From an uncultured Candidatus Saccharibacteria bacterium (GTDB taxonomy: Bacteria; Patescibacteriota; Doudnabacteria; UBA920): 35,203 bases of DNA. The first letter of the stretch is position 1. Each line of letters opens with the position of its first letter. The stretch lies in the NCBI GenBank assembly GCA_964561655.1, contig CAZLQG010000003.1, positions 1 through 35,203 on the forward strand. The letters run 5' to 3'. The translations under genes and the position numbers were made by a program. Of this stretch, positions 4,161 through 31,181 are shown one piece after another. The notes below the pieces were generated by a model that worked only from the letters and a program-made list of their open reading frames with translations, was not told the origin of the DNA and did no database searches.

Positions 4161-4907
4161 ATGAAGAATAAATTTGAACAAACTTCACAACCTATACCGG
4201 AACAGATTAGGGAGAGAATGTTAAAGGAACCAGAATACCTTCCTTCGCATGGTGATATTAGAATTGCTTTTCCCACTCAGAAAGAATGGAGTGATTACAG
4301 AGTAGAGGTAGATTTCCACGAATTATTAAATAAAGAATTTTTGGCAGCATTGTCAGATTATCTAGCGAAAAGGATTACTGCTTACGGTGGGACTAAAGAG
4401 CATCCGGTCGTAATATTAGAAGCAGGGGCAGGCGACGGCCGTTTAACTCATTTTTTGTGCCAAGGATTGGAGGAAAGAACGAAAGGTAAATTTAGAATAG
4501 TGGCAGTAGATATAGGCGAGTGGATACCCAACCCCCCTTTTCCTGTAGAGAATATTGATTATAAAGAAGCTTTAAAAGAACATAAGCCCGCAATAGTTAT
4601 ATGTTCTTGGATGCGTCCAAGGACGGACTGGACGGCAGATTTTAGAGGGCAGAAAAGCGTTAAAGAGTATATCTTAATTGGGGAAAAATATGGCGGGGCT
4701 AGCGGTAGAGACTGGGAGACTTGGGGGGTTAAATTAAATGTAGATTCTGGAGGCCCTATAGAAAGACCAGAAACAGCTCCATATAAGGTTGATGGTTTTG
4801 AGAGTTTCGATCTTGAGGATATTAGCCAACATCAAATAGCTTGTACTGATTATCCTCCCTTGGAGCATGAACATTCACATACAGTTTCTTTTAGGAGAAA
4901 AAGTTAA
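4161..4907 (+). CDS. putative SAM-dependent methyltransferase-fold protein
   Basis: ILEAGAGDGRL motif I followed by IVAVD; ATG 4161 chosen just after the glmS stop. Confidence 0.65.
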   Translation: MKNKFEQTSQPIPEQIRERMLKEPEYLPSHGDIRIAFPTQKEWSDYRVEVDFHELLNKEFLAALSDYLAKRITAYGGTKEHPVVILEAGAGDGRLTHFLCQGLEERTKGKFRIVAVDIGEWIPNPPFPVENIDYKEALKEHKPAIVICSWMRPRTDWTADFRGQKSVKEYILIGEKYGGASGRDWETWGVKLNVDSGGPIERPETAPYKVDGFESFDLEDISQHQIACTDYPPLEHEHSHTVSFRRKS

Positions 4908-4926
4908 TTTTATTTCAATACGAATT

Positions 4927-5991
4927 ATGAAACTTTTTGAATATCAGGGAAAAGAATTATTTCAAAAATATGGGATAGCAGTTCCGAAGAGCCAGCTGAT
5001 TTCGGCGCAGACAGAGAGGGCTTCTCTTGAACCGCCATTTATTTTAAAGGCCCAGGTGCTTTCCGGAAACCGCATGAAAAAAGGCGGTATCGTAGTGGTA
5101 GATAGCGTTAGCGAGTTTGAGAATTTAAAAAATAAGATTTTTAATACCCTAATTGACGGGAGTTTGCCGGAAAAAATATTGCTGGAAGAAAAAATTGAGG
5201 CAAAAAAAGAACTGTATATATCTTTTAGCTACAGTACAGATACCCGAACGCCGGTATTTTCCATTTCCGCCAAAGGAGGGGCCGGAGTAAGCGCGGCTGA
5301 TATTTTTTCAATAGATTTAACGGAAGAACTGACAGATTCTGTCCTGCGGAATTGGCTTGATAAGACTAAAATTTTAGCTTCAGGCGGGTTACTGAAGGCC
5401 ATTCGTTCTTTATGGAAATTATTTTTAGATGAGAAGGCTTTAATTGCGGAAATTAACCCGTTGTTTGAGTTGGACAGCGACGCGTTTGTTGCCGGTGATG
5501 CCAAAATTGTTTTGGACGATAACGCGGTTAATCCGAAGTTCCGGCCCTTTTTGGATTTGGACGGTGATATTGCGGTGCTGGCATCCGGCGGCGGCGCTTC
5601 GCTTATCAACTTGGACGCTTTGCTCAAGCACGGGGGCAGGCCGGCAAATTACGTTGAATATTCCGGCAACCCGCCGGCGTCCGTGGTGGAAGAACTCACA
5701 GTCAAAGTCTTGTCTAAACCGAATTTAAAAGGCTGCTGGGTTATCGGCGGGCTTGCGAACTTTACCGACATTTATGAAACTTTGCTTGGGTTTGTGCAGG
5801 GACTTAAGAAAATTAAACCCCTGCCTTCCTATCCGATTGTTATCCGCAGAGATGGGCCAAGGCAGAAAGAAGCTTATAAAATGCTAAATGAAACGGCGAA
5901 AAAAGAGGGTTTTGACTTTCATTTATATGGACCGGAAATTTCCATGTCGGATTCGGCCGGAATAATGGTTAAATTAGCTTATAACAAATGA
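4927..5991 (+). CDS. ATP-grasp + citrate-binding subunit (ATP-citrate lyase beta / citryl-CoA synthetase large subunit)
   Basis: MKLFEYQGKELF, KAQV, EINPL (SucC/AclB ATP-grasp) plus ACL-type ASGGGAS, ANYVEYSGNP and GGLANFTDI. Confidence 0.85.
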   Translation: MKLFEYQGKELFQKYGIAVPKSQLISAQTERASLEPPFILKAQVLSGNRMKKGGIVVVDSVSEFENLKNKIFNTLIDGSLPEKILLEEKIEAKKELYISFSYSTDTRTPVFSISAKGGAGVSAADIFSIDLTEELTDSVLRNWLDKTKILASGGLLKAIRSLWKLFLDEKALIAEINPLFELDSDAFVAGDAKIVLDDNAVNPKFRPFLDLDGDIAVLASGGGASLINLDALLKHGGRPANYVEYSGNPPASVVEELTVKVLSKPNLKGCWVIGGLANFTDIYETLLGFVQGLKKIKPLPSYPIVIRRDGPRQKEAYKMLNETAKKEGFDFHLYGPEISMSDSAGIMVKLAYNK

Positions 5992-6896
5992 GTATATTAA
6001 TAGATGAAAATACAAAAGTCCTGATTCAGGGTATTACGGGCAAGGAAGGATCACGCGCAGCGGGAGAAATTTTTCGGTACGGCACGCGGGTATTAGCGGG
6101 CGTAACTCCCGGGAAAGGCGGGCAGACCACGGAAATTGGAGCGCCGGTGTTCAACAGTGTGAAGGAAGCCTTGGCAAAATTCCCGGAGATAAATACCAGT
6201 TTAATTGTTGTACCGGCGCCGTTTGTGCTGAGCGCGGCAACAGAAGCTATTGAATGTAAAATACCTTTGATAAATATTTTAACGGAAAAAGTTCCGGTAC
6301 TGGATGTGGCAAAAATTATAAGCTTGGCGCTTCGGGCAGGAGTTAAAGTTGTAGGCCCGAGTTCAGTGGGAATTATTTCTCCCAAAAAAGCAAAAATCGG
6401 CAGTATTGGCAGTTCGGAGCTGGTCCATAAAACTTTTGCTTCCGGCTTTGTGGGAGTTATGTCTAAAAGCGGCGGTATGACAGCGGAAATTTCCAGAATT
6501 TTGACAGAAAGCGGTCTGGGGCAAAGCACTGTCGTGGGGATTGGCGGTGATTTGCTTATTGGTTCGGATTTTGTAGATTTAGCCTTGGAATTTGAAAAAG
6601 ACCCGGAGACTAAAGTGCTGGTAATTTTTGGTGAAGTGGGGGGTTCCTATGAAGAAAAATTGGCGGAGGCAATGCGGCAAAAGAAAATAAAGAAGCCGGT
6701 TGTAGCGTTGATTGCCGGAAGATTTTCTGAAAAATTGCCGCAAGACACCGTGCTGGGGCATGCAGGAGCGATTGTCAGCAAGGGAAAAGGTTCGGCTAAT
6801 TCCAAAATTGCAGCTTTGGAAAAAGCAGGCGCAGTGATTGCGGAAATTCCGGAGGATATTTCTTTATTGGTTAAAAAAATTATTAATGCCAACTAA
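5988..6896 (+). CDS. CoA-binding/phosphohistidine subunit (SucD-like; citryl-CoA synthetase small subunit)
   Basis: QGITGKEG, GVTPGKGG, SKSGGM, GIGGD, GEVGG, GHAGA; ATGA overlap with the upstream gene. Confidence 0.88.
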   Translation: MSILIDENTKVLIQGITGKEGSRAAGEIFRYGTRVLAGVTPGKGGQTTEIGAPVFNSVKEALAKFPEINTSLIVVPAPFVLSAATEAIECKIPLINILTEKVPVLDVAKIISLALRAGVKVVGPSSVGIISPKKAKIGSIGSSELVHKTFASGFVGVMSKSGGMTAEISRILTESGLGQSTVVGIGGDLLIGSDFVDLALEFEKDPETKVLVIFGEVGGSYEEKLAEAMRQKKIKKPVVALIAGRFSEKLPQDTVLGHAGAIVSKGKGSANSKIAALEKAGAVIAEIPEDISLLVKKIINAN

Positions 6897-6897
6897 T

Positions 6898-7602
6898 ATG
6901 AAATTTAAAACAGCCATAAGCCAAACCAAAAACAACAAACACTATATTTGGGGAAAAGATATTTTAGAATTAATGGACAGGCATTCTTTTACTGAAGTTA
7001 TTTTTTTGTTTTTGCGCGGCAGTTTGCCAAAAAAAAATGAACAAGCACTTTTGGAAGCTGTGCTAATTGCCGCCACGGAGAACGGGATAGAAGCGCCGTC
7101 GCTGTTTGTGCCGCGCGTGGTTGCGGCCAGCGGAAATGAATTTCATGCTGCATTGGCCGCAGGCATGCTTTCCATAGGCGAAAAACACGGCGGGGCAGCA
7201 GGAAAAGCCGCAGAGCTGTTTAGCTGCGGCAAAAGCGCGGAGCAGATTGTTAAAGAAAATAAGATTATTCCCGGCTTCGGGCATAAAATGTATAAAGACG
7301 AAGACCCAAGGGCGACTTTGTTGCATCAAAAATCTAAAGATTTAGGCTTTTCGGGGAAGTATTTTGAAATTGCCAAAGAAATTGAGAAAATATTAGCGGA
7401 AAAGAAAGGCAGGGAATTGCCTTTGAATATTGACGGCGCTATGGCTTGCTGTATGTTGGAATTGGGGCTTGATGCCAAACTGGGCAAAGCCTTGTTCTTG
7501 ATCGGCCGCATTGTCGGTATGTCTGCGCACATTTTGGAAGAATACAAGCAGGGGAATAGTTATTATAGGCTGGGGGAAGATGAAATTGAATATCAAGAAT
7601 AA
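6898..7602 (+). CDS. citryl-CoA lyase (citrate synthase-like fold)
   Basis: HGGA, IPGFGH, DPR, LNIDG, GR..G..AH motifs; about 234 aa stand-alone. Confidence 0.85.
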   Translation: MKFKTAISQTKNNKHYIWGKDILELMDRHSFTEVIFLFLRGSLPKKNEQALLEAVLIAATENGIEAPSLFVPRVVAASGNEFHAALAAGMLSIGEKHGGAAGKAAELFSCGKSAEQIVKENKIIPGFGHKMYKDEDPRATLLHQKSKDLGFSGKYFEIAKEIEKILAEKKGRELPLNIDGAMACCMLELGLDAKLGKALFLIGRIVGMSAHILEEYKQGNSYYRLGEDEIEYQE

Positions 7603-11852: not shown

Positions 11853-12194
11853 ATGAAAACCAGTATAAAAAAATCTATCAAGCAATCGAAAGCCATAAAG
11901 TTTGAAGTTAAAGATGGCAGAAAAACAATAGGCCGCGCGTATTTGTATATCATTAAAAATGATTTGCACAAAAAGCCTTACGGCCTTTTGGAGGATTTGT
12001 TTGTGGAAGAAGCCTACCGAAAGCAAGGATTGGGAACAAAATTATTGATAAAGGTGATTAGTGAAGCAAAAAAGAGAAAGTTATACAAACTCATTGGCAC
12101 GAGCAGGACTTCTAGAATGAAGGCCCATAAATTTTATGAAAAGTATGGTTTTAAAAAATACGGGTACGAGTTCCGCATGAATTTAACCAAATGA
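11853..12194 (+). CDS. GNAT acetyltransferase, GNA1-like (candidate glucosamine-phosphate N-acetyltransferase)
   Basis: GLLEDLFV..YRKQGLG..LYKLI..FYEKYGF; ATGA overlap with the GlmU-like gene. Confidence 0.8.
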   Translation: MKTSIKKSIKQSKAIKFEVKDGRKTIGRAYLYIIKNDLHKKPYGLLEDLFVEEAYRKQGLGTKLLIKVISEAKKRKLYKLIGTSRTSRMKAHKFYEKYGFKKYGYEFRMNLTK

Positions 12195-12925
12195 AAGATC
12201 AAATTATCATTCTGGCGGCGGGGAAAGGCACCCGCCTAAACCACGAAAGCCTGCCTAAGGTTTTAGTGCTTTTTAGGGGACAGCCTTTAATTAAGCATTT
12301 GCTTTTAAGAATTTCCAAAATCATCCAAAGCACAAAACCAATAGTGGTTGTGGGCTTTATGGCAGAAAAAGTAAAAGCCACGTTGGGAAACAGGTTTGAG
12401 TACGTTTTGCAGGAACCGCAGCTTGGCACCGCGCATGCCGTGCGCGCGGCCAAGGAAAAAATAAAAGCGGAAAACGTTTTGGTTTTGTATGGCGATATGC
12501 CTTTTATTACGGAAGGTAGCTTAAGGAAACTAATCAGAATGCATCACGATGAAAAGGCAAACCTTTCCATGTTCACCGCCACCGTGCCGAATTTTGAAAA
12601 TGAATTTGCAGGCTTGTTGCATTATGGCAGAATAATCCGCAGTTTCAACAAAGAATTTGTTAAAATTACGGAATTTAAAGACGCAAGCGACGCAGAGAAA
12701 AACATTAAAGAACTAAATACCGGAATTTATATGTTTAATTCGCAATGGCTGTGGAAAAACATAAAAAAAATTAAAAATAAAAATGTGCAGAAAGAATATT
12801 ATCTTACTGACATCGTGGAAATTGCCATAGAGCAGAAAGAAAAAATATATTCGCTTGCCATAGATCCCAAAGAGGTGATTGGTATAAACAGCAAGGAAGA
12901 CTTGGAGAGAGTGGAATCCCGTTAG
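12191..12925 (+). CDS. glmU: GlmU-like N-acetylglucosamine-1-phosphate uridylyltransferase, N-terminal domain only
   Basis: ILAAGKGTR, LPKVL, QLGTAHA, YGDMP, YGRI, ELNTGIY, EYYLTD, GIN; ends before the hexapeptide acetyltransferase domain. Confidence 0.88.
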   Translation: MKDQIIILAAGKGTRLNHESLPKVLVLFRGQPLIKHLLLRISKIIQSTKPIVVVGFMAEKVKATLGNRFEYVLQEPQLGTAHAVRAAKEKIKAENVLVLYGDMPFITEGSLRKLIRMHHDEKANLSMFTATVPNFENEFAGLLHYGRIIRSFNKEFVKITEFKDASDAEKNIKELNTGIYMFNSQWLWKNIKKIKNKNVQKEYYLTDIVEIAIEQKEKIYSLAIDPKEVIGINSKEDLERVESR

Positions 12926-12991: not shown

Positions 12992-13038
12992 GTGGATATC
13001 ATACGCCCGCCCCTCTTAAGTAAGAGGGGATTTTTATT

Positions 13039-13080
13039 TTGACAGTATGCTGTATGATATTATATGATAAAGTATGATAA
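13039..13080 (+). promoter_or_regulatory. sigma70 promoter overlapped by three TATGATA repeats
   Basis: TTGACA (13039-13044), 18 nt, TATGAT (13063-13068); TATGATA at 13053, 13063 and 13073. Confidence 0.7.
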
Positions 13081-13191
13081 ATAATCAAAAAAAATCAAAC
13101 CAAGTTAAAAAGTAGGTGCTGGGGCCGTAGATTAAATTTTACGGCCCGGCCACCTGCTTTTGAAACTCGGTGGTAGACGACAGGAACTTAG

Positions 13192-13273
13192 TTGCCATCC
13201 CGACCGTAGTGGAGAGATCTCTATAATTATCAGAAATCGTTAGGAGATCCTTCGTTAATATTTAGGATGACAA
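13192..13273. repeat. second, degenerate REP/RPE-like element
   Basis: TTGCCATCCCGACCG..GGATGACAA ends resemble 11731-11841. Confidence 0.7.
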
Positions 13274-13385
13274 AAATAAATTTTTGTCATCTGCCACTGC
13301 CCTGTTAGTTCAGAGGGGCCAGAGGCAGTTGTACACCCCAAATTCAAGGAGGGGTGATGATTTTAGGGAGACAAGGAGAACCGGA

Positions 13386-14624
13386 ATGGTAGAGTTGGGA
13401 ACTTTCCCGAGAATTGATTCACTTCCGCCATACGTATTGGCGGAGGTAACCAGAGAGAAACAAAAATACCGTCATGATCAGCTAGATATCATCGATTTTG
13501 GAATGGGTATACCTGACGGTCCCACACCTCAAATCGTGGTGGACAAGCTGAAGACGGCGGTTGACGACAAACGCAATCATCGCTATTCACAATCCATAGG
13601 GATCCCCATGTTGCGGGTTGAGATAGCGAAACGCTATCAGGCTCGCTACGGCGTCAGATTGGATCCGGATAGCGAAGCCATCGTCAGCATCGGTGCCAAG
13701 GACGCATTGGCCCACCTGCTAATTGCCGTTCTGAATGCCGGCGATGGCGTGGCGACACATTGCCCTTCATATCCTATCCATATGCAGGGGGTGGTATTTG
13801 CCGGTGGCGTGCCGTTTCTGCTGGAGATGCCGAGTCCAGATGAATTTCTTAATCGGCTTCACGACCTGTACCGGATGTTGGCGTGCAAGCCGCGCATGAT
13901 CCTCATCTCTTTCCCGCACAATCCCACAACCCAATGTGTGGAGTTGGACTTCTTTAAGGAGATAGTCCGGTTGGCGCATCAGCATGGTACCATGGTCGTC
14001 CACGACTTCGCCTACGCGGACCTGGGCTTTGACGGTTACCAACCGCCGAGCATGCTTCAAGTCCCGGGAGCGAAGGAAGTGGGCGTGGAGATTTTCTCTT
14101 TGTCCAAGAGCTTCAACATGTCGGGTTGGCGCGTGGGGTTTTGCATTGGCAACCTGAGGATGGTGGAGGCACTGCGGAAGATCAAGAGTTATTTGGATTA
14201 TGGTGTATTCCAACCTATCCAGATCGCGTCCATCATTGCCATGCGACACTGCGAAGAGGACACCCGGCGCATTTGTGCCACGTACCAGAGGCGGCGGGAT
14301 GTGCTCGTTGAAGGACTCAACTCAATCGGCTGGCCAGTTGATAAGCCTAGGGGAACAATGTTTGTCTGGGCACCGATACCAGAGTCTTTTCAAAATATGG
14401 GCTCACTACAGTTCTCGAAGCTTCTTCTGGAGAAGGCGCTTGTGGCTGTTTCCCCTGGTGTGGGTTTTGGACCGTTTGGTGAAGGGTACGTTCGTTTCGC
14501 GCTGATTGAGAACTTTCATCGCACGAGACAAGCCCTCCACAATCTCAAAACAACCTTCAGAGGCTGGGAAAGCCCGCATCCGCGGCGACGACGAAAGCAA
14601 GCCGCTATCGCAGTCTCCACTTGA
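13386..14624 (+). CDS. alaC: class I/II PLP aminotransferase, AlaC/DapL-like
   Basis: LPPYV, IDFGMG.PD, YPIH, FPHNPT, HDFAY, SLSKSFNMSGWRVGF, KSYLDYG; ATG preceded by AAGGAG. Confidence 0.82.
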   Translation: MVELGTFPRIDSLPPYVLAEVTREKQKYRHDQLDIIDFGMGIPDGPTPQIVVDKLKTAVDDKRNHRYSQSIGIPMLRVEIAKRYQARYGVRLDPDSEAIVSIGAKDALAHLLIAVLNAGDGVATHCPSYPIHMQGVVFAGGVPFLLEMPSPDEFLNRLHDLYRMLACKPRMILISFPHNPTTQCVELDFFKEIVRLAHQHGTMVVHDFAYADLGFDGYQPPSMLQVPGAKEVGVEIFSLSKSFNMSGWRVGFCIGNLRMVEALRKIKSYLDYGVFQPIQIASIIAMRHCEEDTRRICATYQRRRDVLVEGLNSIGWPVDKPRGTMFVWAPIPESFQNMGSLQFSKLLLEKALVAVSPGVGFGPFGEGYVRFALIENFHRTRQALHNLKTTFRGWESPHPRRRRKQAAIAVST

Positions 14625-14637
14625 CCTGTTTACATGT

Positions 14638-14709
14638 GGGGCCGGGCAGTATCCTTGGATTTTTCTTACCGGAGAAATTCTAGGAACTGCCTTGCCCCGT
14701 CAGTTTTTT
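14638..14709 (+). terminator. long hairpin / terminator after alaC
   Basis: GGGGC..GGCAGT..CCT..TTCT / AGAA..AGG.ACTGCC..GCCCC followed by T6. Confidence 0.65.
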
Positions 14710-14733
14710 AAAATGTGACTGTGCAGAACTGTT

Positions 14734-14790
14734 TTGACATATAACTTTATATTTGTTTTAATATAGTAAAGTATTACGATATCATACTTT
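14734..14790 (+). promoter_or_regulatory. sigma70 promoter with downstream palindromic operator
   Basis: TTGACA (14734-14739), 17 nt, TTTAAT; AAAGTATTACGATATCATACTTT at 14768-14790. Confidence 0.65.
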
Positions 14791-14920
14791 TTTATAAAAG
14801 ACTGTTCTTCGCAAAATTAGCCTAAAAAATTTTAGACTAATTTTGCGGGGAGGAAGCCTTTCTTCCCCCAAAAAGGCGGGCGAGTGCCCGCCATCACACT
14901 AGACAACAGAGGTAAGAGAG

Positions 14921-15124
14921 ATGCAAGCACAAGCGCCCCCAGATGGGGCTAGTGTGACTCCCACCGCCAGCGAGGCGGTGGATGGACCGGCCGCGGAGAC
15001 GCGGCCAAGACAAGAAGCAGGAGGGATCAAGATTCCGGTTATCAACTGGCGTCTCGTCCAGAAGTGTCCGGTCGATTTCCCGGATGGCGTAATGCGCGTG
15101 GGAGGTGTGCAGGCGCCAGCGTAG
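14921..15124 (+). CDS. 67-aa hypothetical protein (or part of a structured RNA)
   Basis: AGAGGT SD 7 nt upstream, own promoter, flanking hairpins; no recognisable domain. Confidence 0.5.
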   Translation: MQAQAPPDGASVTPTASEAVDGPAAETRPRQEAGGIKIPVINWRLVQKCPVDFPDGVMRVGGVQAPA

Positions 15125-15399
15125 GGTGATACTCGAGGTCATCCTAAGCATCGGGCCTCCTAAGGGCCCGTCTTCTTAGGCGCATCAAGCGCCTCTCGCT
15201 ACACAAGCCGGAATTACCAACGTAGTTCGTGTAGTTTGCAACGAATGCCCGCTTTGCGTTGCAGTCACACAGGTGATTCCGGCTTCACCTTTTAAATTCA
15301 GGAAAAATATGATATCATCACACTTGTGAGGTTTTAGTATCCCCTCCTAATTTTCCCTTAAAGTAAGGGGAGGTAGGGTAGGGATATTAATATCGTTAA

Positions 15400-16245
15400 A
15401 TGTCCAGAGAACGACTTACAATTACGCTTAAAGACGAGCTTTTGAAGGCCTTAGACAGCCAGATTGACGGACATCGTTTAAGGAACAGAAGCCACGCGAT
15501 TGAGTACTTTTTGTCCAAAAGCCTTGGGGGAAAACCTGCTAAGGTTTTAATTTTGGCCGGCGGCAAAGCGGTTTATTTTGCGTCCGAAAAAAAGAGCTTG
15601 CCTAAGGCCATGGTCAAAATCGCGGGCAAGCCGCTTTTGGAACAGGTTTTGCTGAAACTCAAGAATTTCAAATTAACCGATGTTTGGATTTCCGTGGGAG
15701 AAGGCGGTGAAACCATTAAACAGCACTTTCAGGATGGCTCGGACTTGGGGCTTAACATCAATTATCTGGATCAACCGAAAGGCTGCAAAGGCACGGCGCA
15801 GGCTTTGCTCCAGGCCAAGGATATTGTGGGCTCGGGCAGTTTTGTTTTGCTTTACGGGGACGTTTTAAGCGACATTGATTTCAATGAATTTTTGGAATTC
15901 CACCGCAACCAGAGGGGGGAAGTCTGCACCATGGCTTTGACAGTGGCCGAAAGCGTTTCCATGTGGGGTTTGGCCCAGCTGAACGGGAGTCGCATAGTGA
16001 GTTTTGAGGAGAAACCCAAAAGCCCGAGAACGTTTTCCAGGCTGGTGAATGCCGGCATCTATGCAATGGAGCCGGAAATTTTTAAATACATAAAATCCGA
16101 TGAAGCCAAGCTGGAAGCTGTCGTGTTTCCGCGCCTGGCGGAAGAGGGTAAGCTGTACGGGTATCCGTTTAAAGGCTTATGGCTGGATATAAGTAATAGC
16201 GCGGCGTATAAGCAGGCGCTAAAAGAAATTTCCAATCTCCAATAG
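15400..16245 (+). CDS. ribbon-helix-helix DNA-binding domain fused to a sugar-phosphate nucleotidyltransferase-like domain
   Basis: RLTITL..L..LD..I....NRSHAIE (CopG/NikR-type RHH), then ILAGG, LPKAM, GTAQAL, YGD, FEEKP, VNAGIY, WLDI. Confidence 0.85.
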   Translation: MSRERLTITLKDELLKALDSQIDGHRLRNRSHAIEYFLSKSLGGKPAKVLILAGGKAVYFASEKKSLPKAMVKIAGKPLLEQVLLKLKNFKLTDVWISVGEGGETIKQHFQDGSDLGLNINYLDQPKGCKGTAQALLQAKDIVGSGSFVLLYGDVLSDIDFNEFLEFHRNQRGEVCTMALTVAESVSMWGLAQLNGSRIVSFEEKPKSPRTFSRLVNAGIYAMEPEIFKYIKSDEAKLEAVVFPRLAEEGKLYGYPFKGLWLDISNSAAYKQALKEISNLQ

Positions 16246-16291: not shown

Positions 16292-17332
16292 ATGGCTAAG
16301 AAAAAACCCTCCAAAAACAAAAGATTGCGAATCGCGCTTAACGGCCTCGGAAGAGTCGGGAGAATTTTTTTGCGGATTGCCTACAATAACCCGCATTTTG
16401 AGATTGTGGTTGCAAAGAGCAGAAGCCCTCTTGAAACATACGTCCATCTTTTGAAGTATGACTCAGCTTACGGGGTTTGGGAAAAAGAAGTTGCCAAAAA
16501 AAGGAATAATTTGGTAATTGAAGATGTCAGTATTCCGTTTATTCAGGAAGCCAACGGCAATGTAAACTGGAAAAAATTGGGTGTGGATATGCTGATAGAC
16601 GCAACCGGAAGGTATACGCAGCGGGAAAAGGCAGAAGAGCATATTGCCGCGGGCGCAAAGTATGTAGTGGCAACCGCGCCAATGAAAGAGGAGGACGCGA
16701 TTTTGGTTTATGGCATAAATCATAAGACTTTTGATCCCGAAAAACACAGGATAGTTTCCGCTGGCAGCTGCACCACGGTTTGTAGTACGCTTACGGCCAA
16801 AGTTTTGGAAGAAAATTTTGGTATCCGCCAAGGTTTTATTAACACCGTGCACGCGGTGACCAACGACCAGCAGCTTTTGGATGCTTCGCACAAGGATTTA
16901 AGAAGGGCGCGCGCCGCCGGCCAATCTATAATTCCGACTTCCACGGGCGTTTCTAAAACTATTACTAAGTTGTATCCGCATCTTAAAGGGAAAATTGCGG
17001 CTTTGTCCCTGCGCGTGCCGGTACTTAACCCTTCGGTTGTGGTTTTTACGGTGGAACTTAAAAAGAAAACCACGGCCCAGGCGTTAAATAACGCGTTCAA
17101 AAAAGCCTCGCAAGGCGAGCTTAAAAATCATTTAGATGTTTCGGATTTGCCGCTTGTTTCCACGGACTTTAAAGGCAATCCCAACGGTGCCATTATTGAT
17201 TTAGTGAGCACCGAAGTGGTAGATGGAAAACTTGCTAATATCCTTGCTTGGTACGACAACGAATGGGGTTATGTCCAGCAGATGGTTTATCTGCTGGAAT
17301 ATATGGCGAAAAAAATCAGCGTTAAGTCCTAA
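16292..17332 (+). CDS. gap: type I glyceraldehyde-3-phosphate dehydrogenase (divergent)
   Basis: NGLGRVGR, SCTT catalytic Cys, TVHA, DLRRARAA, IPTSTG, RVP, WYDNEWGY. Confidence 0.92.
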   Translation: MAKKKPSKNKRLRIALNGLGRVGRIFLRIAYNNPHFEIVVAKSRSPLETYVHLLKYDSAYGVWEKEVAKKRNNLVIEDVSIPFIQEANGNVNWKKLGVDMLIDATGRYTQREKAEEHIAAGAKYVVATAPMKEEDAILVYGINHKTFDPEKHRIVSAGSCTTVCSTLTAKVLEENFGIRQGFINTVHAVTNDQQLLDASHKDLRRARAAGQSIIPTSTGVSKTITKLYPHLKGKIAALSLRVPVLNPSVVVFTVELKKKTTAQALNNAFKKASQGELKNHLDVSDLPLVSTDFKGNPNGAIIDLVSTEVVDGKLANILAWYDNEWGYVQQMVYLLEYMAKKISVKS

Positions 17333-28837: not shown

Positions 28838-29935
28838 CTACAAGTTTAACAGCACGGCCGCTATCCAGGGGAAGGCAAGCGTAACGTCGCTTTGAATTAT
28901 TTGGTAATAACTTTCGGTAGAAAGTTTGTCCCAGGTTATTTTTTCTTTTCCGCCCGCGCCGGAATAAGAGCCGTAAGACATAGGTGAGGAACCGATTTCA
29001 ATAAAGCCTGCCCAGTCCCGCACTTTTGGCAGGCGAAGGTCGTGTTTTAAAGAAGGAACTATACAGATCGGAAAGTCTCCGGCTATCCCTCCGCCGAGCT
29101 GCAAGAAGGCAATGGGGTGCTTTTTAGATTCTTTCATATACCAGTCATAAAGCAGATGGAAATATTCGAGACCGGTCTTCGTTATGTCAGGGCTGATGGT
29201 GATGTCGCCTTTTTTCTTGTGCGGTCCGTTATAAGTATAGCTGGCAAAAATATTTCCCATAGTGGAGTCTTCAAAACCCGGAACTACTATTGGGATATTT
29301 TTTTTGTAAGTTGCATAAACCCAAGAGTCTTCCGGATTAGACTTAGGGTCCGGGGAAATTAATTTTTCGGAAAACAGGCGCCTAAAATATTCATGCGGAA
29401 AATATCTTTTGCCTGTTTTTTGCGCCTTTTGCCACATCTTCAAAAGATGCGGTTCCATAATTCGCACGCTTTCATCCTCAGGCAAAAAAGTGTCGGTAAT
29501 GCGGCGGAGCCCTGCATCGCGCAGTTCTGCCTCCTGCTTTGGGGTTAGTTCAGTGTAGCGGGGGATATAAGCATAGTGGGAATGCGCAACATAGCGGTAA
29601 TATGATTCTTCGTGGTTTGCGCCGGTTGCGGAAATTATATGAACCTTGTTTTTTCTAATAAGCTCCGCAAGCATCACTCCTACCTGGAAAGAACTTAAAG
29701 CCCCGGCCAGAGTTACCATTAATTTTCCGCCGTTTTTTAAATGATTTTTCAGCCATAAAGCTGCCTGCATGGTGGCGCCGGCATTGGTGTGGTTTAGGGT
29801 TTTTTGCGCGTATGCGGAAACAGGAGAGGAGGCTTTTTTTACAAAAGCATTTAGCTCACCTTTTGAAGTATTTTTTTCCGGTTCAATAAGCTGTCTTAGC
29901 CCTGGGGAAAGTTTTTTAAGTTTACTTTTTTTCAT
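28838..29935 (-). CDS. deoxyhypusine synthase-like protein (homospermidine synthase candidate)
   Basis: LAGALS, TGAN.EE, RITDT, PGFEDSTMG, LGGG..DF, YSGA...EKITWDK with the conserved Lys. Confidence 0.9.
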   Translation of the reverse strand: MKKSKLKKLSPGLRQLIEPEKNTSKGELNAFVKKASSPVSAYAQKTLNHTNAGATMQAALWLKNHLKNGGKLMVTLAGALSSFQVGVMLAELIRKNKVHIISATGANHEESYYRYVAHSHYAYIPRYTELTPKQEAELRDAGLRRITDTFLPEDESVRIMEPHLLKMWQKAQKTGKRYFPHEYFRRLFSEKLISPDPKSNPEDSWVYATYKKNIPIVVPGFEDSTMGNIFASYTYNGPHKKKGDITISPDITKTGLEYFHLLYDWYMKESKKHPIAFLQLGGGIAGDFPICIVPSLKHDLRLPKVRDWAGFIEIGSSPMSYGSYSGAGGKEKITWDKLSTESYYQIIQSDVTLAFPWIAAVLLNL

Positions 29936-29976
29936 AGTTCTTTTATTACGAGGATATTCTAACTTAAAATATTTAA

Positions 29977-30297
29977 TTATTCAATATTTAAAAGCACAAT
30001 GCTGGTTAAGCCTAAAAGAATGCCAATTTTGGCCCAGATGCTGATTTGTTCCTTAAACCAAAATAGGCCTATAAATACGACTAGGATCAAATTTAGAAGG
30101 GTAAAAATAATGATTGCTTTGGAAAGAGCCTCGTATTTAAGGGATAGCGCCCACAGCACACCACCTAAAAAGTAAACCCCAAAGCCTACCAGCAAGGTTG
30201 TGAGATTATCGCTTAAAGACCATTTTTTAAAGAAAAAATCTCCGGCAACTTCTAGCAAAACGGCGGTAAGAATCAGAATGTAAAAGATTAAGCTCAT
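29977..30297 (-). CDS. SMR/DMT-family small membrane transporter
   Basis: 106 aa, four hydrophobic helices, TM1 Glu (LLEVAGD), G...FKE motif. Confidence 0.8.
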   Translation of the reverse strand: MSLIFYILILTAVLLEVAGDFFFKKWSLSDNLTTLLVGFGVYFLGGVLWALSLKYEALSKAIIIFTLLNLILVVFIGLFWFKEQISIWAKIGILLGLTSIVLLNIE

Positions 30298-31181
30298 TGG
30301 AATTTAAAGCCTATTATTTTATAAACTAACCTGGCGGCCAGAAGGTCTGCTGCGTGGAAGTTTTTTTGAGGAGCAAATTCAACTACGTCAGAACCTATAA
30401 CGTTCTTATTTTTAAAAACAGTTTTTAAAATGTCTAAACTAGGCCACCATAGCAGTCCCCCCGGTTCGGGGGTGCCGGTTGCCGGCATTATTGAAGGGTC
30501 GAACGCATCAATATCAAAAGTTATATAAACATCTTTTGTGGGAATCGCTTTTGCGATATCTGCCGGTTTAAATTTTTGCCAAGCCCAGAATGTTGAAATT
30601 CTTTTTTTGTTATTTTTTCTGAATTCCTGTTCTCCGTCAGAATCACCGAGGGTTCTTATACCAACTTGGACCACATATTTAATTGGCAGATTTTTCATTG
30701 ACTGGTGGATTACCGAAGCGTGGCTATAAATGGAACCGTCATAAGATTTTCTCATATCTGAATGGGCGTCAAATTGCAAAACTGTCAAATTTTTATATTG
30801 AGAACAAATTCCTTTGAGCGCTCCTTGAGTAATAGAATGTTCTCCTCCCAGTACTAGAGGAAATTTTTTGTCTTTAACTATTTTGCCAGTGATATTTGCT
30901 AGCAGGTTAAGGGTTTTTTTTGGATCTTTGGAGAGCCGTGGTTCGGCCAGCGTAAACATCCCATGTTTGTAGGCAGCTTTTTTGGTTTGTTCATCAATGG
31001 CTTCTACCTGCCGACTGGCTTCAATAATCGCCTTTGGACCATTTTTTGTTCCGCTCCCATAGCTTACGGTGGCTTCATATCCAAAAGGAACGATTACTAC
31101 TTTAGCTTTTTTGTAGCTTGTATTAAACTCGTTTTTCTTTAAAATTTCTAAAAATCCTTTTTTATGTAGTCGGAATTTCAT
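30294..31181 (-). CDS. speB: agmatinase (ureohydrolase)
   Basis: TVSYGSGT..GP, GGEHSI, FDAHSD, FDIDAFDP..PATGTPEPGG, DVVE. Confidence 0.92.
   Translation of the reverse strand: MKFRLHKKGFLEILKKNEFNTSYKKAKVVIVPFGYEATVSYGSGTKNGPKAIIEASRQVEAIDEQTKKAAYKHGMFTLAEPRLSKDPKKTLNLLANITGKIVKDKKFPLVLGGEHSITQGALKGICSQYKNLTVLQFDAHSDMRKSYDGSIYSHASVIHQSMKNLPIKYVVQVGIRTLGDSDGEQEFRKNNKKRISTFWAWQKFKPADIAKAIPTKDVYITFDIDAFDPSIMPATGTPEPGGLLWWPSLDILKTVFKNKNVIGSDVVEFAPQKNFHAADLLAARLVYKIIGFKFQ

Follow-up and report, generated by a model that had tools for sequence, protein, structure and literature searches.

A candidate metabolite-responsive repressor that joins a NikR-type ribbon-helix-helix domain to a degenerate sugar nucleotidyltransferase fold

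Introduction

Few members of the Patescibacteria and of the DPANN archaea have been cultured, and their gene regulation is consequently almost unexplored. A 35,203-nucleotide stretch of DNA from one patescibacterial genome (contig CAZLQG010000003.1, positions 1 to 35,203, hereafter called the window) raises a question that bears on this subject: why would a single gene encode a DNA-binding domain followed by the fold of a sugar nucleotidyltransferase whose catalytic signature loop has been lost? The gene in question (positions 15400..16245, + strand) is an open reading frame (ORF) of 281 amino acids with an ATG start codon, and it resides in a genome assembly of 830,723 nucleotides in 45 contigs that is 95% complete. 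The closest homologs of its protein product carry the name Candidatus Doudnabacteria.

The original prediction for this locus was that the gene encodes a ribbon-helix-helix (RHH) domain fused to a degenerate nucleotidyltransferase, and that the product senses a sugar phosphate or a nucleoside diphosphate (NDP) sugar to control transcription. Our computational follow-up leads us to favor, with reasonable though incomplete confidence, a specific form of this idea. The protein is probably an autoregulated repressor of an aminotransferase gene and of its own gene plus gap, in which the enzyme-derived domain would bind a nucleotide-sugar-like ligand.

The N-terminal domain resembles the DNA-binding domain of NikR

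The first 46 residues (15400..15537, + strand) form a NikR-type RHH DNA-binding domain, as judged from profile comparisons, matches to the Pfam family RHH_1 (PF01402) and the topology of a structure model. A profile was built from 25 N-termini of 47 residues each, taken from the window and related loci (alignment A2), and was run against all solved chains. The best match is Escherichia coli NikR, with an expectation value (E) of 4.4e-10 and profile positions 4-46 falling on NikR residues 2-44, followed by the antitoxin Rv0298 (8.5e-8), CopG (5e-5) and Pyrococcus NikR (2.9e-3). The isolated 47-residue N-terminus matches RHH_1 at E 0.0013, and when the N-termini of the relatives were scanned singly, this family was matched by 25 of 25 at E<=0.1 (best 3.7e-7). 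The assignment of this region as a CopG/NikR-like RHH domain is thereby borne out.

The structure model is consistent with these matches. An AlphaFold model computed with 38 sequences (mean predicted local distance difference test score, pLDDT, of 74.7; block values of 59-78 across the RHH domain) has an extended segment at residues 4-10 and helices at residues 12-21 and 30-42, and therefore carries the strand-helix-helix topology expected of an RHH domain. The strand R5-L-T7-I-T9 (R-L-T-I-T-L) corresponds to R-V-T-I-T-L in NikR, and the residues N29-R30-S31, which stand just before helix 2 (residues 30-42), are common to both proteins. A prediction of the RHH dimer from two 47-residue copies with the N-terminal alignment gave a score of 0.34 against a mark of 0.42.

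In an alignment of 38 close relatives that are 61-86% identical, conservation is strongest in the N-terminal domain, where T7, I8, T9, L10, D19, D23, G24, L27, R28, N29, R30, S31, H32, E35, Y36 and L38 are all invariant. The match to NikR stops at NikR residue 44, and the C-terminal half corresponds to the Pfam family PF00483 rather than to a nickel-binding tetramerization domain. Therefore, the protein is not a member of the NikR family.

The nucleotidyltransferase-like domain lacks its signature loop

The remainder of the protein (residues 47-281; 15538..16242, + strand) is a sugar-1-phosphate nucleotidyltransferase-like domain, which we read as a predicted ligand-binding and oligomerization module. 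The Pfam family PF00483 (NTP_transferase) matches residues 48-277 at E 3.2e-32. The best solved relatives found by sequence search are sugar-1-phosphate nucleotidyltransferases, led by 8x7s (E 5e-28) and followed by VTC1, GMPPB, RmlA and MurU, and a Foldseek search with the AlphaFold model likewise places 8x7s first (1e-18), ahead of RmlA, MurU, VTC1 and GMPPA/B. The expectation that a nucleoside triphosphate (NTP) transferase fold follows the RHH domain is thus borne out by both sequence and structure comparison. None of the best 25 of 41 nucleotidyltransferase families in NCBIfam reached its equivalog cut-off, and the top scores are 109 bits for Arch_glmU (cut-off 292) and 86 bits for MurU (cut-off 250).

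In enzymes of this type, a G-x-G-T-R loop serves in NTP phosphate binding and catalysis, and the Arg of this loop is required for catalysis. The aligned enzymes (8x7s, VTC1 and the paralogs described below) show (L/A)AGxGTR(L/V) at this position. Residues 52-60 of the fusion protein (15553..15579, + strand) instead read LAGGKAVYF in place of the L-x-G-G-x-G-T-R-L signature, exactly as had been noted in the original prediction. This change is not peculiar to the window, since GTR is missing from the loop in 38 of 38 close relatives, the majority of which have GGKPVYF-x-SEKK-x-LPKAM there. Three stand-alone paralogs in the same genome, at sites that include positions 12191-12925 and contig C1, retain the signature (G-x-G-[ST]-R) as GGLGSRL, AGKGTRL and GGSGTRL. 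Seven of the 38 relatives (P0086, P0087, P0090, P0093, P0097, P0101 and P0107) also carry an insertion of ~35 residues within the degenerate loop. This insertion opens with a repeat of the PVY motif (GGKPVYP...GVGVYF).

Outside of the loop, a set of positions typical of the enzyme family is invariant in the 38 sequences: K69, Q125, G131, D154, E203/E204/K205 (within E204-K205-P206), N217/G219 and D263. The invariant C-terminal positions align to the PK, GD, EKP, NAG and (W)xD motifs of the three paralogs. By reference to RmlA- and GlmU-type enzymes, we take these positions to be base, sugar-phosphate and metal sites, with the Lys after the loop, two acidic metal or ribose ligands and the E-K-P sugar-phosphate motif presumably playing the same roles as in RmlA and GlmU. 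Because the GTR loop has been lost while these positions have been kept, we read the domain as a ligand-binding pseudo-enzyme, which we infer to be catalytically dead. The invariance of the putative binding positions makes the proposed sensing of a sugar phosphate or an NDP-sugar plausible.

Distribution of the fusion and of loop loss

A survey of domain architectures establishes that the fusion has been conserved. Of the 146 genomes of the order, 46 carry a single full-length copy whose match starts at residue 1-3, corresponding to 42 of 118 good-quality genomes and 20 of 67 genera of the order (the window's own genome included). The fusion also occurs elsewhere in the Patescibacteria and in DPANN and other archaea; a genome scan and the Atlas yield the same architecture in Micrarchaeota, Aenigmatarchaeota, Woesearchaeota, Methanosarcinales/Methanobacteriota and an Asgard-labeled genome. 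A word-indexed search returned 2663 proteins at E<=1e-3. The 120 of these that were listed are about 253-341 amino acids in length and span at least 90% of the query, and their source names are nucleotidyltransferases or hypothetical proteins, with a precomputed RHH_1 label in one of the 120.

A profile search of 1.84 billion cluster representatives was used to compare members that carry the RHH domain with those that lack it. Among the best 150 representatives listed, 141 span the loop region, comprising 91 RHH-bearing and 50 RHH-less proteins. The G.G[TS]R signature is retained by 5 of 91 RHH-bearing versus 32 of 50 RHH-less representatives (Fisher p 6e-14, a value that ignores relatedness). 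Other positions differ as well between the two groups, with K69 retained in 51 of 91 versus 44 of 50, EKP in 55 of 91 versus 42 of 50, and D263 in 47 of 91 versus 42 of 50, while D154 is retained in 83 of the 91 RHH-bearing representatives. In a FastTree phylogeny of the C-terminal domain (135 rows, loop columns left out, 24 of 132 inner branches supported), the five RHH-bearing members with a canonical loop are found among enzymes that lack the RHH domain, and every one of the large RHH clades has a degenerate loop.

These data bear on the main rival to a pseudo-enzyme sensor, namely a bifunctional enzyme-repressor of the sort exemplified by PutA, BirA and NadR, in which the non-canonical loop still permits the synthesis of an NDP-sugar, the operator is bound by the same protein, and catalysis or substrate occupancy is coupled to repression. 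Within the clade, K69, D154, E204/K205 and D263 do not vary, conservation extends to the lysine-rich loop GGKPVYFxSEKK, and the position of the canonical-loop fusions among RHH-less enzymes implies that the enzyme originally fused was probably active. However, no stand-in for the loop Arg is evident, the second Gly and the Thr of the loop are also replaced in all 38 relatives, and ~35 extra residues are tolerated there in seven of them. Moreover, no equivalog cut-off is reached among the NCBIfam matches listed, and the genome has three paralogs with intact signatures. We therefore regard an active enzyme-repressor as a minority prospect, albeit one that deserves serious consideration.

A second alternative is that the protein is an RHH repressor whose nucleotidyltransferase-like domain is an oligomerization scaffold that binds no ligand, such that regulation is exerted through the level of the protein or through a partner. 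The wider RHH-fused family seems to encourage this idea, because its members have lost K69 (40 of 91), EKP (36 of 91) or D263 (44 of 91), or have deleted the loop. A pure scaffold would have no need of the binding positions that are invariant in the window's own clade at 61-86% overall identity, however, and we consider this explanation improbable.

Operator-like repeats near the fusion gene

We compared 29 upstream regions, from the window and 28 related loci (L001-L028), which are otherwise unalignable. These regions carry a repeat in one of two forms, a palindrome (GTATGAT-N3-ATCATAC) or a tandem (GTATGAT-N3-GTATGAT), and the 17-bp consensus of the palindrome is GTATGATATTATCATAC. Either form is present upstream of the gene in 25 of 29 regions at one mismatch or fewer and in 28 of 29 at two or fewer, compared with means of 0.0 and 0.11 regions, respectively, in 100 dinucleotide shuffles. 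The density of GTATGA hexamers is 6.3 per kb in the 250 nucleotides upstream versus 0.57 per kb elsewhere (36 sequences).

Palindromes prevail in the close clade, and tandem repeats are found in L005, L007, L019, L021-L023, L026 and L027. The motif accompanies the gene where the neighboring genes differ (L019-L028). The exception among the 29 regions is L006, in that the gene lies inside an operon and the array stands in front of the first gene of that operon. In L026 and L027, the tandem repeats come after a promoter-like site (TTGACG-N18-TATAAT). In a Micrarchaeota locus (L032) whose RHH strand reads R-I-T-I-T, the 70 nucleotides upstream contain two copies of GTATGA and one of TCATAC, and archaeal members with K-x-S-x-T strands have neither hexamer within the 140 nucleotides upstream that were examined.

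The window itself carries several copies. The proximal palindrome (O2), ATATGATATCATCACAC, is located at 15307..15323, 77 nucleotides before the start codon, and has two mismatches to the consensus; equivalents are kept in the 28 other loci. The -10-like hexamers TATGAT and TATCAT fall within O2, and two weaker promoter-like sites have their -10 element there. A distal array (O1; 13052..13078, + strand) is composed of three tandem half-sites placed 10 nucleotides apart (GTATGAT, ATATGAT and GTATGAT), and an inverted half-site, ATCATAC (12998..13004, - strand), stands 53 nucleotides upstream of it. O1 overlaps the spacer and the -10 element of the region's strongest promoter-like site (TTGACA-18-TATGAT, 13039-13068, 11 of 12 matches). 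A third operator-like palindrome, GTATTACGATATCATAC, is present at 14771..14787, again with two mismatches and in company with a promoter-like site at 14758-14785. L005 shares this layout of two operators.

As judged by exact hexamers, 18 of 29 loci have an array equivalent to O1 between the GlmU N-terminal-domain (GlmU-N) gene and the gene that follows it. The full layout, comprising ATCATAC, ~47 nucleotides, then GTATGAT-N3-GTATGAT-N3/4-(GTATGAT or ATCATAC), is found in 12 of these 18, with a distance of 50-54 nucleotides from the distal half-site to the array. The gene behind O1 is usually an aminotransferase gene, and is replaced by a PfkB kinase gene in L028 and by a HAD-PRK fusion gene in L006.

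A scan of the window for the palindrome gave 6 matches versus 0.91 expected. Across the 830,723 nucleotides of the genome there are 12 sites at two mismatches or fewer, of which four lie within the 2.3 kb from 13052 to 15323. The eight outside of the locus, five of them inside ORFs, were treated as chance occurrences. In related loci, copies of GTATGA that fall within gap or within the TIGR00375-family gene were likewise set aside as coding coincidences (W-Y-D, M-Y-E and G-Y-D codons).

NikR reads a GTATGA half-site by using Arg3, Thr5 and Thr7. The operator of E. coli NikR is GTATGA-N16-TCATAC (PMC7055735), and the half-site predicted here is therefore the same as that of the closest solved RHH protein. 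The fusion protein is predicted to bind the GTATGAT repeats.

The regulator gene and gap appear to form a transcription unit downstream of O2. The gap gene, which encodes a type I glyceraldehyde-3-phosphate dehydrogenase (16292-17332, + strand), begins 46 nucleotides 3′ of the fusion gene; no terminator-like site is found in this 46-nucleotide interval of the window, and the two genes are probably co-transcribed. In 20 of 20 close loci (L001-L018, L024 and L025), gap lies directly 3′ on the same strand.

Two further alternatives fare less well in light of these data. The protein might be a conventional sugar-1-phosphate nucleotidyltransferase whose N-terminal extension has no affinity for DNA, in which case the repeats would either belong to the promoter or be bound by another factor, for instance the TrmB-like protein encoded at 1492-2238. 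Databases do call the relatives enzymes, and the half-sites do look like -10 boxes. Yet no part of the protein is better conserved than the N-terminus, whose profile matches NikR and CopG, and the repeats follow the gene across differing neighborhoods, equal the half-site of the closest solved RHH protein and are almost exclusive to this locus genome-wide. We consider this explanation very unlikely. A toxin-antitoxin-like module, in which an RHH antitoxin is fused to a nucleotidyltransferase toxin, can be dismissed almost entirely, since the appeal of RHH as a common antitoxin domain and of Rv0298 as the second-best solved match is contradicted by a C-terminal fold of the PF00483 (RmlA/GMPP) type rather than the Pol-beta type (MNT/AbiE-like), and by a gene that is single-copy per genome, syntenic and placed among metabolic genes, unlike the mobile two-gene modules of patchy occurrence that are typical of type II/IV systems.

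Proposed mechanism

The explanation that we favor is a one-component repressor whose NikR-like RHH domain probably dimerizes and reads GTATGA(T) half-sites. The nucleotidyltransferase-like domain would bring RHH dimers together, such that the joined dimers could occupy the 17-bp palindrome before the regulator gene, and also the tandem array plus the half-site ~53 bp away before the aminotransferase gene. Each of the two sites overlaps -10-like hexamers, and a bound repressor should therefore obstruct RNA polymerase. Two promoters would thus be controlled, one for the aminotransferase gene and the other for the regulator's own gene with gap. The pseudo-enzyme domain would bind a nucleotide-sugar or a related metabolite, and ligand binding would in turn change the affinity for DNA; repression itself and the direction in which the ligand would shift it are predictions from the layout of sites and domains.

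Our guess is that the ligand is a UDP-hexosamine or a UDP-hexose (uridine diphosphate sugars). This weak inference is made because the protein has a Q...G-T-A motif, because its best family scores are GlmU- and MurU-like, and because a GlmU-N gene lies in the neighborhood. We also entertain, more tentatively and with greater doubt than belief, a broader proposal in which NikR-type RHH repressors with decayed sugar-nucleotidyltransferase effector domains operate across domains of life (in Patescibacteria, DPANN and other archaea), with the member described here acting as a sensor of a UDP-sugar envelope precursor that would set the transcription of gap, an alanine or LL-diaminopimelate aminotransferase gene and possibly an abundant, structured RNA of 432 nucleotides (described below) located behind the third operator copy. 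On this proposal, the protein would be the first dedicated regulator of central carbon metabolism put forward for these ultra-small symbionts, and its operator would already be in hand.

Several observations weigh against the repressor model. When the full 281-residue protein is compared with RHH_1, the match (residues 5-35, E 0.028) scores 14.8 bits and thus falls under the Pfam cut-off of 20.5 bits. Four of the five residues that we take to be catalytic in RmlA-type enzymes are retained, and therefore weak or altered activity is possible. Some members of the family, as suggested by the five of 91 fusions with a canonical loop, may be true enzyme-repressors. Since K69, EKP and D263 are often lost across the RHH-fused family, a single ligand for the whole family is unlikely. 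The link between the RHH domain and loop loss comes down to four independent pairs on supported branches (sign test p about 0.5). With only four usable pairs on a weakly supported tree, the association is not backed by phylogeny, and it may rest on few events. With regard to the operators, the motif was counted in the same upstream regions that yielded it, in genomes that are related to each other. O2 and the third site of the window are among the most degenerate copies, and because the half-sites resemble -10 hexamers (TATGAT and TATCAT), their conservation might in part be promoter conservation.

Neighboring genes

The original prediction placed the gene between a UDP-GlcNAc (UDP-N-acetylglucosamine) cluster and a block comprising gap, pyk and ppsA. 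On a broad scale this placement stands, given that glmS and genes for GNAT and GlmU-N proteins lie upstream and that gap, pyk and ppsA lie downstream, but the immediate upstream neighbors are instead the aminotransferase gene and an ORF-poor spacer. The upstream order is TrmB-like regulator (1492-2238), glmS, ATP-citrate-lyase-like genes, others, then CofD, GNAT, the GlmU-N gene (12191-12925), the aminotransferase gene (13386-14624, + strand) and the 775-nucleotide spacer that separates the latter from the fusion gene. After gap, the order is an IMPase-family gene on the opposite strand, a TIGR00375-family gene, His_Phos_1, pyk and ppsA. The IMPase-family gene follows gap on the opposite strand in all 18 close loci that reach that far. 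Neighbors of more distant members include PfkB and PFK genes (L026 and L027), IMPase-family genes (L021, L022 and L028), PGM, DUF2090 and glpX FBPase genes (L032), a UDP-glucose dehydrogenase gene (L034) and an NDP-sugar epimerase gene (L035).

The product of the aminotransferase gene, a predicted regulon member with the O1 array upstream, belongs to class I/II, and its best family matches (alanine transaminase and LL-diaminopimelate aminotransferase) are both under their cut-offs. The region from 13500 to 14600 has 52-56% G+C, compared with about 40-47% in its neighbors, which might reflect acquisition of the gene by transfer. A leader of about 300 nucleotides (13085-13385) with several hairpins separates the O1 promoter-like site from the ATG at 13386; the listed TTG start codon at 13284 is probably too early. 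A hairpin whose 3′ arm enters the sequence GG(A/G)ATGACA, a few nucleotides ahead of the start codon, is located at about 13235-13290 of the window and just before the regulator start in L008, L009, L012, L013 and L017. This recurring element may sequester a ribosome-binding site, or it may be a small repeat element. Arrays of CTACAG, CTGTAG or TGTAG repeats, a second conserved non-coding feature, lie in the 5′ leader of the regulator gene, between the operator and the start codon, in L010, L011, L014, L016 and L024 and are absent from the window.

Two other gene groups of the window deserve mention. Three genes at 4867-7602 encode ATP-grasp_2 plus Citrate_bind, CoA_binding plus Ligase_CoA, and a citrate-synthase C-terminal domain; they constitute an ATP-citrate-lyase or citryl-CoA-type set, which is unexpected in a small patescibacterial genome. 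Deoxyhypusine-synthase-like and arginase/agmatinase-family genes lie together at 28838-31181 (- strand), beside a fragment of an EamA-type transporter gene.

A structured RNA in the spacer

The spacer contains a discrete, structured RNA of 432 nucleotides (14852..15283), which lies between two operator copies and is evident from metatranscriptome contigs and from folding. The element is GC-rich (55-60%), and its folding z-score is -6.2 for the + strand, which we favor, and -4.8 for the - strand. In four of four lake-water metatranscriptome runs, one contig spans 14851/2 to 15282/3 at 99-100% identity, and in two of the four contigs an Illumina adapter sequence directly follows the contig end. 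Aside from one 167-nucleotide piece of the aminotransferase gene, the metatranscriptome contigs miss the flanking genes, including those for the regulator and gap.

This RNA has no Rfam match at E<=1, it is ruled out as a tRNA or a transfer-messenger RNA (tmRNA) by ARAGORN, and BLAST found no match to it in 145 other genomes of the order. A divergent counterpart is located at the same place in L005 (3345-3805), between an operator palindrome and a tandem operator, and ends with a stem plus a run of U nucleotides on the + strand. The two small ORFs inside the RNAs from the window and from L005 have no mutual tblastn match, and an alignment of these two sequences is too weak for a covariance model. 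A pattern scan of metagenome contigs for additional members yielded only chance matches, and additional motifs were found in 0 of 80 loci. A 54-nucleotide inverted repeat of the type cgcaaaattagcc...ggctaattttgcg follows the upstream operator copy and stands just before the left end of the RNA, both in the window (14803-14855) and in L005 (3307-3360). BLAST finds no other part of the spacer in common with L005 (83% identity for this stretch). With regard to housekeeping RNAs, ARAGORN found no tmRNA gene in this 95%-complete genome, where matches to Rfam RF00023 are all tRNA-sized and under the cut-off, and an RNase P RNA is encoded elsewhere (C1:68344-68685).

Significance

Enzyme-derived sensor domains on repressors are known. 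The combination of an RHH domain with a sugar-nucleotidyltransferase fold, together with the operator and regulon predicted here, was not found described in the full-text literature covered, which was mostly that outside of subscription journals. If our proposal is correct, the sugar-nucleotidyltransferase fold would join the enzyme folds that have been recruited as sensor domains of transcription factors, and the DNA-reading head of NikR would have been reused with a quite different effector module. It would also follow that the enzyme names given to the relatives mislead metabolic reconstructions of these genomes. A predicted operator, a small predicted regulon (gap, the aminotransferase gene and, elsewhere, sugar kinase genes) and a set of candidate ligands make the proposal testable in vitro without growing the organism.

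Comparison with known systems

NikR (PDB 1q5v, 2hza and 2hzv) is the closest counterpart with regard to the N-terminal domain. The two proteins share the R-x-T-x-T strand, the N-R-S helix cap and the GTATGA half-site (predicted in our case), and in both an N-terminal RHH domain is carried on a ligand-binding oligomerization domain, although ligand binding by the fusion protein is a prediction. NikR forms homotetramers that contain two RHH DNA-binding domains (PMC7055735). The C-terminal domain of NikR binds nickel, whereas that of the fusion protein has a nucleotidyltransferase fold. Likewise, the half-sites of the NikR operator are separated by N16, in contrast to the spacing of 3 bp in the palindromes and tandem repeats described above, where an extra site lies ~53 bp away. 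Finally, NikR targets nickel uptake, while the predicted targets here serve carbon and amino-acid metabolism.

A precedent for a non-catalytic NDP-sugar sensor is provided by GMPPA (PDB 7d72-7d74), which belongs to the same enzyme superfamily as judged from our sequence and Foldseek matches. GMPPA still has the GTR loop, and its loss of activity has another cause. This non-catalytic paralog binds GDP-mannose (guanosine diphosphate mannose) and regulates GMPPB (PMC11228364). Unlike the fusion protein, GMPPA is an allosteric regulator of an enzyme partner and has no DNA-binding domain.

PutA, BirA and NadR are examples of DNA-binding domains fused to metabolic enzyme modules, wherein metabolite occupancy controls transcription. 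PutA has an RHH domain, and NadR has a nucleotidyltransferase, though its adenylyltransferase belongs to a different fold family and its DNA-binding domain is a helix-turn-helix (HTH). The enzymes of these three proteins are active, whereas the signature loop of the fusion protein has been lost. In this respect, closer parallels are NrtR, ROK/NagC and Bacillus subtilis PurR-type proteins, in which catalytically decayed enzyme folds serve as the effector-binding domains of repressors. Their folds are those of Nudix proteins, sugar kinases and phosphoribosyltransferases, respectively, and are joined to HTH or winged-HTH domains. To our knowledge, none of these uses a sugar-nucleotidyltransferase fold or an RHH domain.

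With regard to gene arrangement, a further analog is CggR, the repressor of the gapA operon of B. subtilis. CggR is an HTH protein of the SorC family and is unrelated to the fusion protein in sequence and fold, but it senses a sugar phosphate and its gene is located immediately upstream of gap within one operon, just as the gene for the candidate repressor described here directly precedes gap.

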